Source: an uncultured Candidatus Saccharibacteria bacterium (lineage in GTDB: Bacteria; Patescibacteriota; Minisyncoccia; Phycocordibacterales; UBA6899). From it: 64,000 nucleotides of DNA. The notes under the pieces were generated by a model. That model was not told the origin of the DNA. It made no database searches and saw only the letters and a list, made by a program, of their open reading frames with translations. The stretch is taken from assembly GCA_964515375.1 (NCBI GenBank), contig CAZERF010000001.1, positions 115,243 through 179,242 on the forward strand. The letters run 5' to 3'. Shown here piece by piece: positions 177-27,938 of this stretch (position 1 is the first letter of the stretch; every line of letters starts with the position of its first letter). A program made the position numbers and the translations under genes.

Positions 177-309
177 TGTTGTTGTGAAGAAAGAAAGGAA
201 CAGCCGGGGAAAACTCTACTTCTTATTTTTGTAGTCGTCAATTGCATTTGTCCACCGAGAGGCGCATATCCCCATCAATTTTTTTGATTTTTTCCATAAA
301 TATGCTAGG

Positions 310-26017: not shown

Positions 26018-26461
26018 ATGCTAACAGAAACGTTCAAAAAAATCAAGGAATTTCTCGTTTCCACGGGTGACCTTCCCAAGGATATCTTTTTGGCTCTCCT
26101 GGTTGTTTTTGTGGGTTTTGGAGGATTTTTGATCGGTCGGATCAGCGTTGTTCTCGATGGTACACAAGGCGGGCTCAGGATCACTGAAAAGGAAGTGCGG
26201 TCCTCCGTGGTGGGTGTGGGGCAGGGGAGTGTCCTGGGGGCAGTGACGGCTTCGTCGGAGAGTTTGACGATTGGCACGAAGGAAGTCGTACCAGCGCTCA
26301 AAACAGGAGTCTATGTTGCGTCACGAAACGGGACAGTCTTCCATTTGCCGACATGCTCGGGGGCAAAACGGATCTCGGAAGCCAACAAGATATGGTTTGC
26401 GACAAAAGAAGAAGCACTTGCGAAAGGATATCGCCCCGCTGCGAATTGCAAGGGGTTGTAG
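26018..26461 (+). CDS. Hypothetical membrane-anchored protein with a C-terminal Ada-Zn-binding-like motif
   Basis: One TM helix (IFLALLVVFVGFGGFLI). The C-terminus is VFHLPTCSGAKRISEANKIWFATKEEALAKGYRPAANC, which fits the Ada N-domain-like pattern hPxC...N..F....EA...GYRP..C. Confidence 0.5.
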   Translation: MLTETFKKIKEFLVSTGDLPKDIFLALLVVFVGFGGFLIGRISVVLDGTQGGLRITEKEVRSSVVGVGQGSVLGAVTASSESLTIGTKEVVPALKTGVYVASRNGTVFHLPTCSGAKRISEANKIWFATKEEALAKGYRPAANCKGL

Positions 26462-26610
26462 GAGGGGGGGTAAGATCGTGCAAGAAGTGAGACTGCGAAA
26501 AGAGGGGTTAGGTTATAAACAAGGGGTCGCCAAAAATAAATTTTCTGGTATACTCCTTCTTGTATCTGTTTGGGAGTTTGTATCTGGTAAACATAATTTT
26601 CGGGCTATCG

Positions 26611-26645
26611 GATCGTGGTTGGGACTACATGCCATATTGGAGAGT
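26611..26645 (+). repeat. Degenerate copy of the 5' half (acceptor/D-arm/anticodon stem) of the downstream tRNA-Pro
   Basis: CGGGCTATCGGATcGTGGTtgggaCTACATGCc nearly matches tRNA positions 1-33. The sequence then diverges and lacks a matching 3' acceptor strand. Confidence 0.45.
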
Positions 26646-26695
26646 GCATGCACCCTGTTGAGCGACCACAACTTCGATGATAAAAAAGATAAGAT

Positions 26696-26766
26696 CGGGC
26701 TATCGGATAGTGGTAGTCTACATGCATGGGGTGCATGCGGCGGCAGTTCGATTCTGCCTAGCCCGA
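26696..26766 (+). tRNA. tRNA-Pro (anticodon GGG), 71 nt, CCA not encoded
   Basis: Hand-folded cloverleaf. Acceptor CGGGCTA/TAGCCCG (7 bp). D-stem GGAT/GTCT with loop AGTGGTA. Anticodon stem CATGC/GCATG with loop AtGGGGt (U33, G37). Variable loop CGGC. T-stem GGCAG/CTGCC with loop TTCGATT. Discriminator A. Confidence 0.75.
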
Positions 26767-26802
26767 CAAAAGTTCAGTCAGTAGTTTACTTCACAAAAAT
26801 GT

Positions 26803-26866
26803 CCCCATGCATGGGGGTGTCTATATTCATTACCGGGACGCCAGTTCGATTCTGTCTAGCCCGAAG
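26803..26866 (+). repeat. Degenerate copy of the 3' portion (anticodon-like hairpin, T-arm, 3' acceptor strand) of tRNA-Pro
   Basis: CCCCATGCATGGGG palindrome, then ...CCAGTTCGATTCTGtCTAGCCCGA. That stretch matches the tRNA T-loop and 3' acceptor strand with one or two changes. No 5' acceptor partner lies upstream. Confidence 0.5.
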
Positions 26867-26958
26867 CATTGGTTGTAAAAAGCGGAAAAGCAGCAAAATG
26901 CCATTTTACTGCTTCTTTGCTGAAATATTGTGCGACGTAATAGTGAGACATCGATGCT

Positions 26959-26988
26959 TTGACGGAACTTTTCTGTTCGTGGTATAAT
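26959..26988 (+). promoter_or_regulatory. Strong sigma70-like promoter for the PEBP gene
   Basis: TTGACG (26959-26964), an 18-nt spacer, then TATAAT (26983-26988). The ATG at 27023 follows a GAGTGAGG Shine-Dalgarno-like stretch. Confidence 0.55.
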
Positions 26989-27022
26989 TAAAGAGTGAGG
27001 TGAACTCGGGGCAAGCCGGTTC

Positions 27023-27544
27023 ATGTGCTCCGCGGGGATCCTTGCGATCACCATGAAGGAACATGTTACTCAAGACGCGACCACTCTTTTTGCTTTGACC
27101 AGTCCCGCATGGGGAGACGGTGGTTTTGTTCCTTCCGAATATACCTGTGACGGATTCGGCGAAAGCCCCGAACTCTTGATCTCGAATACCCCCGAAGGAA
27201 CTTCTTCTCTTGTTCTCATCATGCACGACCCAGACGTGCCTCGTGCGATACGTCCAGACGGCAATTTTGACCACTGGGTCCTCTATGATATCGATCCGAA
27301 GACGGTAATCATCCCAAGGAATACGTCGGTTGGTACTGAAGGACTGAATAGTGTGTGCAAGAAGGGTTATGTCGGACCATGTCCGCCGAACGGTGAACAT
27401 CGCTACATTTTCGATCTCTACGCACTCGATAGGAGATTGGATCTTCCTCCGCGTGCGACGCGTCGTGAAGTTGAATGCGCAATGAAATCCGTAACGGTAC
27501 TTGGCGCGGCAACACTTTTGGGGCGATATCGAAGAGGAGGGTGA
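27023..27544 (+). CDS. PEBP-family protein (YbhB/YbcL-like phosphatidylethanolamine-binding protein)
   Basis: Conserved LVLIMHDPDVPR...DHWVLYDID...GYVGPCPPNGEHRYIFDLYAL. Confidence 0.85.
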   Translation: MCSAGILAITMKEHVTQDATTLFALTSPAWGDGGFVPSEYTCDGFGESPELLISNTPEGTSSLVLIMHDPDVPRAIRPDGNFDHWVLYDIDPKTVIIPRNTSVGTEGLNSVCKKGYVGPCPPNGEHRYIFDLYALDRRLDLPPRATRREVECAMKSVTVLGAATLLGRYRRGG

Positions 27545-27938
27545 GAGTGTTTTTTTTGCCGTTTTCTGCGGTTCTTTTCCGTGACTCAATACGTCGCACA
27601 ATATATCTTTTACGACATAATACGAAAGAAGAAATGGCCTTGTGTGGCCGTAGTTATTTCTTTTTCCAAAATCGGCTTTTTTAGATTTTTCTTGTCTTGC
27701 ATTCTTTTTTCATCCACCATTCTCCTTATCTATTTTCTTGCTCGAATGTCTGTCTTCTTGATTCGATACCGTCTCGACTCGCTTCTCCTCATTGGGCATT
27801 TGATGTGATCAAAAAATATTTTCACATTTTGTTATTGCAAAGAAGATACCCGGAGAGACTCCCCTGTTGTGTCGCACAATACAGAGGCGACGCAGTCGAA
27901 AAAAGAAAGATGGAATCGAGTGGGGTTTGAGAGTGAGA

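Follow-up and report, generated by a model that had tools for sequence, protein, structure and literature searches.

Why should a streamlined bacterial genome keep degenerate, partial copies of a transfer RNA (tRNA) gene directly beside the intact one? The question is raised by a locus of an uncultured Candidatus Saccharibacteria bacterium that lies in a stretch of 64,000 nucleotides (nt) of contig CAZERF010000001.1 (GenBank assembly GCA_964515375.1, positions 115,243 to 179,242 of the forward strand). This whole stretch is called the window in the following and all coordinates count from its first nucleotide. A tRNA-Pro(GGG) gene is preceded there by a copy of its own 5' part, which we named unit U, and followed by a copy of its own 3' part, unit D. 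Partial tRNA copies next to tRNA genes are usually read as scars of islands or prophages, and a previous sequence-only reading of the stretch had favoured this explanation. Our analysis points instead towards a tandem partial duplication under constraint. We consider it probable that U and D originated by tandem duplication, and we lean, with reservations, towards the view that these degenerate tandem paralogues of tRNA-Pro(GGG) serve as leader and trailer of one precursor tRNA (pre-tRNA) transcript.

An intact tRNA-Pro(GGG) gene between two partial copies

The intact gene (26696-26766, plus strand) has a length of 71 nt and does not encode its CCA end. ARAGORN called it as tRNA-Pro(GGG) at 26696-26767, the sole tRNA reported in the window, and Rfam family RF00005 matched at 26696-26766 with 52.9 bits (gathering threshold 29 bits) as the only Rfam family in the whole 64 kb. 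The tRNA sequence is 100% identical in the related loci L002, L004 and L028 and in most of 36 loci. Since a separately assembled Logan contig (L001; DRR784957) is 100% identical to the locus over 601 nt, an assembly artefact can be dismissed.

The core of unit U (26601-26655, plus strand) was recognised as a truncated paralogue of the tRNA by repeat finding, BLAST and nhmmer (52.8 bits). Repeat finding aligned 26600-26619 to 26695-26714 with 19 of 20 positions matching (BLAST e=0.002), and as the likeness to the tRNA picks up again at CTACATGC and GCATGC, the unit was extended to 26655. It begins with the acceptor 5' strand CGGGCTA (26601-07), continues with the D-arm region, the 3' side of which is altered, and then shows an anticodon-like stem (CATGC at 26628-32 and GCATG at 26646-50) around a 13-nt loop (26633-45) devoid of an anticodon. 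The core ends with C and ACCC (26651-55), the counterpart of C and GGCG in the tRNA; T-arm and 3' acceptor strand are missing from it. In the tail and spacer that follow (26656-26695, plus strand; read from the sequence and the clade alignment), T-loop remnants have been kept, GTTGAGCGACCA in the window and GTTCGAAGACCA in L002, indicating that U was formerly near full length. An A/T-rich stretch ahead of the tRNA holds a possible -10-like box, TGATAAAAA, for which a promoter role is a guess.

Unit D (26801-26864, plus strand; repeat finding, BLAST and profile searches) is a second truncated paralogue, separated from the tRNA by a fast-evolving 34-nt spacer (26767-26800, plus strand) with a clade identity similar to that of four-fold degenerate sites. 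Its 3' part (26839-26864) matches the tRNA 3' end (26741-26766) at 24 of 26 positions (BLAST e=1e-5), while 26801-26816 matches tRNA positions 22-37 to 88%. D opens with GTCCC and the hairpin CCCCATGCATGGGG, which correspond to tRNA positions 22-38, i.e. anticodon 5' strand and loop. It then carries a private 20-mer, TCTATATTCATTACCGGGAC (26820-39), without a counterpart in the tRNA and unique in the window, followed by GCCAG/CTGTC (26840-56), which resembles a T-arm and contains a single C.U mismatch, and by the 3' acceptor strand TAGCCCGA (26857-64); the 5' strand and the D-arm are missing. D of the window has a U at T-stem position 64, as found in the A50-U64 allele of the tRNA in other lineages, which hints at old ancestry combined with patchy conversion.

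From start to start, repeat finding places U 95 nt ahead of the tRNA and D 98 nt behind it. We estimate the chance of such matches on one strand within 200 nt at about 1e-8 to 1e-10. When 26300-27150 was scanned with RF00005, neither U nor D gave a match at E ≤ 10 and the central gene alone was found. Both units contain tRNA positions 22-44, hence they overlap in content and do not represent the two parts of a single split gene. The sequence-only reading had correctly located the intact 71-nt tRNA-Pro at 26696-26766, and the 3' copy it had seen at 26803-26866 was confirmed, with ends at 26801-26864. Its 5' half-copy is real as well, but the coordinates given for it (26611-26645) are about 10 nt off. 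It had also dismissed a long open reading frame (ORF) at 26271-26987 as spurious; this ORF is without a Pfam match and its frame is broken by unit-sized insertions and deletions in relatives, in agreement with that judgement. For annotation, half-copies of this kind are a source of long spurious ORFs and are unsuited as island boundaries.

As the anticodon stem is palindromic (GCATGC), both units are complementary to the anticodon arm of the tRNA: GCATGCACCC in U is a perfect 10-nt complement of tRNA positions 35-44 (window 26646-26655 against 26721-26738 of the tRNA), and CCCCATGCATG in D (26803-26813) is a perfect 11-nt complement of positions 27-37. In the minimum free energy (MFE) fold of the full transcript, pairing of D with the tRNA replaces the cloverleaf. 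The complementarity could allow alternative folds of the pre-tRNA.

Flanking units in related loci

Homologues of the neighbouring Ada-like protein at 80-88% identity led us to three syntenic contigs, in all of which an identical tRNA is accompanied by both kinds of flanking unit. The gene order L27, Ada-like, tRNA, PEBP, M23 is common to the relatives and D stands in the same place. Two U each are found in L002 and L028 and two D in L004, and copy numbers thus amount to 1-2 U and 1-2 D within the clade and to 0-3 U and 0-2 D over all loci. The wider distribution was assessed with an exact 23-mer from the anticodon arm as query. It was found in 11 species-representative genomes (Ca. Lloydbacteria, Taylorbacteria, Parcubacteria and other Patescibacteria) and in 25 metagenome contigs, but in 0 viral contigs.

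A census of units in related loci, in which partial tRNA copies were mapped and profile searches (nhmmer) were performed, revealed a U-type unit upstream in 25 of 29 assessable non-redundant loci (~85%). A D-type unit or a structured unit of type X (described below) is present in about 19 loci, ten of which have D units proper. For the upstream unit next to the tRNA, the start invariably falls at -89 to -96, and D begins at about +88 to +101. Polarity is strict in 36 loci, with 5'-type copies upstream only and 3'-end copies downstream only, as is explained by a duplication end-point inside the gene: the partial copy that remains must then be either 5'-type and upstream or 3'-type and downstream. 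Where units have been duplicated, the spacers were copied with them (L004, L016, L026, L027, L040), and some duplicates are 100% identical (the two U of L040, the two D of L027, copies in L016, L015 and L026), pointing to recent duplication. Spacers within the repeats, identical copies and T-loop remnants together argue for tandem duplication, unequal crossing-over and concerted evolution and against site-specific integration. A side remark of the sequence-only reading, which saw an aborted duplication or a hotspot of recombination as possible sources of the 5' half, had come close to these spacer-bearing tandem duplicates. The flanking genes vary by locus group (Ada-like, HxlR-like as judged by eye, NUDIX, LigT), indicating that the units travel with the tRNA. 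Their persistence in about 85% of the sampled lineages with streamlined genomes is odd and calls for a function.

Some individual loci deserve mention. The first gene after the array of L010 encodes a LigT-type 2H phosphoesterase, an enzyme of the RNA-repair type (PF02834, 2.9e-18), and L015 and L022 have nearly the same sequence; the first gene after the array of L014 is a NUDIX hydrolase gene (PF00293, 8.4e-20), and ORFs of L016 and L020 appear homologous to it by eye. L024 (176-423, minus strand) consists of a tRNA-Pro(CGG), 17 nt, an 18-nt duplicate of the 3' end of that same tRNA (ATTCTCGGCACCCCGACC), tRNA-Pro(GGG) and tRNA-Val, so that half-copies extend beyond the GGG isoacceptor. In L041 (tRNA at 195-266, minus strand), the halves around tRNA-Pro(GGG) belong to another tRNA type (CGGGGTG/CACCCCG) resembling the tRNA-Pro(CGG) of L024. 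Both are contained in a perfect inverted repeat of 18 bp, TAGCACTGAGTCGGGGTG / CACCCCGACTCAGTGCTA, that looks like a leader-trailer stem enclosing a composite unit.

Evolutionary rates across the locus

Identities between clade relatives, for which the near-identical pair L002/L028 runs higher in every segment, were 84-89% for the U core (L002/L028 95%), 87-92% for the D core (98%), 71-79% for the spacer between U and tRNA (87%) and 52-66% for the spacer between tRNA and D (81%). Four-fold degenerate sites of the flanking genes were 34-71% identical between the window and its relatives. The 20-mer of D is preserved at 19 of 20 positions in the clade relatives L004 and L028, with one difference each, and has hardly changed in L006, L036 and L040, the spacers and flanks of which cannot be aligned with the window. 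Assuming a neutral identity of 0.6-0.7, our own arithmetic yields p ~0.0005-0.008 per comparison for at least 19 of 20 matches. Since the private parts change far more slowly than adjacent neutral sites, they appear to be kept by selection, and the comparison implies that constraint acts on the private parts of both U and D. Gene conversion from the tRNA preserves tRNA-like stretches only and can therefore explain neither the 20-mer nor the loop of U. Our case for a function is built on these conserved private segments and on the persistence of easily deletable repeats in streamlined genomes.

Candidate roles of the private segments were also considered. The 20-mer and the 3' part of the U loop (TAGNGT) were rejected as -10 boxes, as their TG spacing is wrong by one position and key positions have not been retained. 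An antisense role of the 20-mer towards the D-loop of the tRNA was rejected too, the match being lost in L006 and L040.

A proposed pre-tRNA with leader and trailer

How could such a locus arise and what might it be good for? Units of ~95-98 nt (tRNA plus spacer) were probably duplicated head-to-tail, with an end-point within the gene or with later decay. The one copy that selection keeps intact would thereby have acquired a 5'-type copy on its upstream side and a 3'-type copy on its downstream side. Copy number would then have been altered by unequal crossing-over, while gene conversion may hold the tRNA-like stretches near the functional gene. Promoter, U, tRNA, D and a downstream hairpin probably make up a single transcript of ~360 nt, from which U would be cut off as 5' leader by RNase P. 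D would be the 3' trailer and, because CCA is not encoded in the gene, its removal would be expected to follow the RNase Z route. The likeliest role of U and D would be that of structured leader and trailer modules for processing or stability of the pre-tRNA, or that of a source of stable by-products like RttR of Escherichia coli. Any such role at the RNA level, whether an effect on processing or stability or the release of by-product RNAs, is a suggestion from sequence that we make tentatively and hold to be somewhat doubtful.

Elements fitting a transcription unit are found on both sides. A likely promoter, detected by consensus scan, lies at 26527-26554 (plus strand) and would consist of TCGCCA, 16 nt and the extended -10 box TGGTATACT (26546-26554). 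The block TTTTCTGGTATACTCC at this site is invariant across the window, L002, L004 and L005, and a TGnTATACT box occurs ~11-12 nt ahead of the first unit in relatives. A second promoter-like site, a weaker hit of the scan, is located directly ahead of U (26570-26597, plus strand; TTGGGA, 16 nt, CATAAT) and coincides in part with a degenerate copy of the first -10 box (TCTGGTATAC at 26544-53, TCTGGTAAAC at 26583-92). No plus-strand terminator was predicted between U, tRNA and D. Downstream of D, repeat finding revealed a hairpin with 20-bp arms (26881-26921) that also appears in the MFE fold; terminator prediction recognises it as an intrinsic terminator only on the minus strand, and it probably closes the plus-strand transcription unit. 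A separate promoter is predicted for the PEBP gene at 26959-88.

Several findings weigh against a leader and trailer function. Some loci have U only (L010, L014, L016), others downstream units only (L013, L027), and U is missing from four lineages and therefore dispensable. The 3' end of D is decayed in L002, L004b and L035, and pair 50:64 of the T-stem has been lost from the window, L004 and L006. Units in relatives are full of insertions, as would be expected for non-essential DNA. Fold energies do not stand out against shuffled sequences (z=-1.38 for the whole unit, +0.61 for U, +0.26 for D). Pair counting over 22 U units yielded zero pairs changed on both sides, only inherited stems being present: the anticodon-like stem is 98% paired yet invariant, and the D-stem is 79.5% paired without compensatory change. 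For 11 D units, RNAalifold found no supported structure and zero double-sided changes. Moreover, gene conversion alone could maintain the tRNA-like parts. The only element RNAalifold suggested for D, a minihelix GGGU:GCCC, was discarded as it shows no compensatory change. Neither co-variation of the U and D acceptor strands nor a leader-trailer extension was found outside L041.

Alternative explanations

One alternative is that U and D are functionless pseudo-tRNA debris of tandem duplication that is regenerated by gene conversion and by expansion and contraction of repeats. In its favour, covariation is absent in both units and their fold energies are at shuffle level; copy number varies and four lineages do without U; copies decay (the D 3' end of L002, L004b, L035); D-stem and T-stem pair 50:64 are broken without compensation; and the units of relatives act as sinks for several kinds of insertion. 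Conversion does not, however, explain why the D 20-mer remains at 19 of 20 positions where neutral sites range from 34 to 71%, nor why it persists in distant genomes. Direct repeats of 20-30 nt at a distance of 95 nt should also be deleted fast, yet ~85% of the loci retain U. We regard neutral relics as a possible but rather unlikely explanation. A similarly low likelihood is assigned to a reading that goes further than a leader and trailer role: the tRNA-Pro(GGG) locus of Parcubacteria-type members of the candidate phyla radiation (CPR) could be a modular RNA array, with U and D as functional tRNA-derived RNAs and as scaffolds that host the structured inserts Y, Z, X and X2 of relatives (see below) in their loops. 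The window would then represent the minimal, insert-free form of a previously undescribed class of RNA systems linked to tRNA.

We further considered a nested RNA, in which the 5' strand of U and the 3' strand of D would form an outer acceptor stem, with the true tRNA sitting inside an outer cloverleaf. Cuts by RNase P and RNase Z would leave a two-piece tRNA-like molecule, loosely resembling two-piece transfer-messenger RNA (tmRNA). CGGGCUA (26601-07) is indeed complementary to UAGCCCG (26857-63), with three further possible pairs, and both are paired in the MFE fold of the whole transcript; U has retained the D-arm and D the T-arm; and the flanking halves of L041 match each other in their 18-bp perfect leader-trailer inverted repeat. 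This complementarity is, however, inherited from the tRNA and hence no proof. Changes in the U acceptor strand are not compensated in D (TGAGCTA against TAGCCCGA in L004), the D 3' end of L002 is lost, U and D are frequently found singly, and other loci lack the leader-trailer extension. ARAGORN also found no tmRNA in the window, and we hold a nested RNA to be improbable.

What, then, about the island scar proposed by the sequence-only reading, i.e. attachment (att) site remnants? According to this explanation, the partial copies are tRNA fragments displaced by integrase-mediated insertion and excision of elements since lost. In its favour, the final part of D matches the tRNA 3' end at 24 of 26 positions, and the last 18-20 nt of X-type units in relatives reach from the T-loop to the 3' end (GATTCTGCCTAGCCCGAC), which is the kind of block used by T-loop-type integrases (Islander, PMC4383910). 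The remaining evidence speaks against it. Among the 45 ORFs of at least 170 amino acids in the 64 kb, Pfam revealed no integrase, transposase, phage or other mobile-element family, and a recombinase match was also missing from the PEBP protein, the Ada-like protein and L9. The sequence-only reading had likewise seen no integrase in the window, which our search bears out for ORFs of this size. Nothing but the 34-nt spacer lies between tRNA and D, hence no island. The related genomes, in which that reading had advised looking for an island at tRNA-Pro, have none: their synteny is unbroken with D in place, and no empty site was seen. The repeats extend over the spacers, unlike an att identity block, which is limited to the tRNA; integration that restores the 3' end yields no upstream 5' copies; and a replacement of 20 nt inside D is unexpected for an att block. 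No matching attP was found among the viral contigs of IMG/VR, which gave zero matches for the anticodon arm, a 3' 21-mer and a 5' 23-mer of the tRNA, and neither the tRNA nor the halves are carried by them. With four of five tested features failing, the island-border model is not supported, and we consider att remnants very unlikely, slightly more so than a nested RNA.

Least credible is the idea that U and D represent exons of an additional tRNA, either intron-containing or split, with the intact tRNA as its "intron" (an alternative that the sequence-only reading had named as capable of refuting it). The overlap of the two units already refutes it: although group I introns are common in tRNA genes of Patescibacteria (PMC13011429) and structured inserts occur at position 39/40 of tRNA-Pro copies in relatives, U and D overlap at positions 22-44 instead of abutting, the stem of U is closed on itself, group I or II introns gave no match at E ≤ 10, ARAGORN found one tRNA only, and the Y insert occurs in both orientations and is thus no strand-specific intron.

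Comparison with known systems

For tandem paralogues of a tRNA serving as leader and trailer, the closest known case, by analogy, appears to be the tyrTV repeats of E. coli. In strain MG1655, three 178-bp head-to-tail repeats follow tyrV, as we checked, and the repeat directly adjoining tyrV shares ~19 nt with the 3' end of that gene; the annotated RttR lies inside this repeat region. According to Bosl and Kersten 1991, as cited in PMC3318445, one tyrTV repeat unit encodes the small RNA RttR. Both systems have head-to-tail repeats that directly follow a tRNA and contain a copy of its 3' end, and both are products of tandem duplication rather than att scars. The features of a tyrT-rttR-type locus, head-to-tail part-tRNA units beside a tRNA gene and a copy number that varies among relatives, are also present here. 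The E. coli units measure 178 bp, however, whereas those described here measure ~95 nt and are known from sequence alone. D additionally contains the anticodon 5' strand and loop and the conserved private 20-mer; 5'-type leader copies occur here and not in E. coli; the layout is kept across many genera instead of one species; and units of relatives host other structured RNAs. The locus can be placed among the tRNA-linked tandem repeats, as a hitherto undescribed variant that a CPR clade has conserved.

Other systems are more distant. With fragments at island borders (Islander, PMC4383910) the locus has in common a partial copy of the tRNA 3' end downstream of an intact gene, but there is neither island nor integrase here, the spacer is 34 nt long and repeated together with the units, 5' copies exist too, and the arrangement is syntenic in relatives. 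Group I introns in or near the anticodon loop have been described for tRNA genes of Patescibacteria (Nakagawa et al. 2026, PMC13011429). They stem from the same phylum, and Y and Z of relatives are likewise inserted at position 39/40 of tRNA-Pro copies, but the tRNA described here is uninterrupted, no group I core is present, and interrupted copies lack 3' halves, so that no tRNA could be made from them. Accordingly, Rfam searches of the window region and of at least six related loci, at gathering threshold and at E ≤ 10, returned tRNA only and neither group I or II introns nor ribozymes or tmRNA. Split and permuted tRNAs of archaea as well as two-piece tmRNA resemble the locus in their separate 5' and 3' halves with possible acceptor-stem pairing. 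The halves in the window, however, overlap and flank an intact copy of the same tRNA, without a bulge-helix-bulge motif or a permutation. Bacteria are not known to possess the archaeal splicing endonuclease. TIGR arrays were set aside, since the units at hand are ~95 nt long, derived from tRNA and without an obvious associated gene.

Structured insertions in relatives

At least four structured RNA motifs that are absent from Rfam are linked to tRNA-Pro units in relatives; the locus in the window is free of such inserts. Motif X (~135 nt), a conserved candidate for a structured RNA, stands right after the tRNA in L006, L009, L011, L012, L013 and L039 and, truncated, in L023/L037. It is composed of an AAGGAGG box, a hairpin and a multibranch part closed by GGCAGAATC/GATTCTGCC, followed by TAGCCCGAC(CA). 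RNAalifold yielded a consensus of 40 pairs for X, seven of them covarying, and the closing stem uses the T-loop and the 3' strand of the T-stem of a tRNA 3' end. X2 (~250 nt) is found downstream in L020, L036 and L040, with related forms in L025 and L032. X2 and X-like forms have the frame CAGAATCGAA ... GATTCTGCC TAGCCCGA(CCA), which is the same as in X. In the X-like form of L025, CGGGCTA near the 5' end completes the acceptor stem, so that the layout resembles that of a tmRNA with ends of the proline type.

Motif Y (100-125 nt; TGAGCTCTGG..GGGAACCCAT..CCAGAGCGCAAGACCTTTTG..CAAAAGGTGTACAGYTCCTGTAAGGAR) has three helices with apparently compensatory changes, as judged by eye. All of its 14 copies are located in tRNA-Pro arrays, where D-loop, the site after the anticodon loop, T-loop and the X2 hairpin serve as insertion sites. 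They belong to L009, L016/L034, L023/L029/L037, L026 (three copies, one inverted at 1146-1244), L030, L033, L036 (two copies) and L041, and Y is absent from Rfam as well as from the window. Motif Z is a ~90-nt insert precisely between GGGGTG and CATGCGG (tRNA 39/40) in the upstream unit of L025/L031 and in L018. Its host is a tRNA-Pro copy without T-arm, and a module of GCAAGA plus hairpin is common to Z and Y. L020 harbours an additional insert that resembles a miniature inverted-repeat transposable element (MITE): it has terminal inverted repeats of ~14 bp, flanked by TAG.

The kinds of insert found in relatives, X, Y, Z and X2, mark the locus as a hot spot of small structured elements. The pseudo-units of relatives can be read in two ways, as dispensable landing pads or as scaffolds. 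If functional, the insert RNAs would add to the short list of CPR-specific non-coding RNAs and would bear on expression and processing of tRNA.

Genomic neighbourhood

L27, encoded on the minus strand and identified in L001, is one neighbour of the locus; the others are a membrane protein that carries an Ada Zn-binding domain and a protein of the PEBP family. The PEBP and Ada-like neighbours had already been named from the letters alone, and Pfam agreed. Pfam scans of the 45 ORFs mentioned above revealed housekeeping genes (ATP synthase, DnaB, RecR, aminoacyl-tRNA synthetases, DnaK/J, RpoA and others). A 12-mer, ATATTGTGCGAC, occurs three times in the window, at 26925-26936 (plus strand), 27593-27604 (minus strand) and 27871-27882 (minus strand), against 0.25 occurrences expected by chance. 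Its copies flank the PEBP gene in inverted orientation, and 23 of the 42 loci fetched contain the 10-nt core. The 12-mer might represent an operator or else a repeat element.

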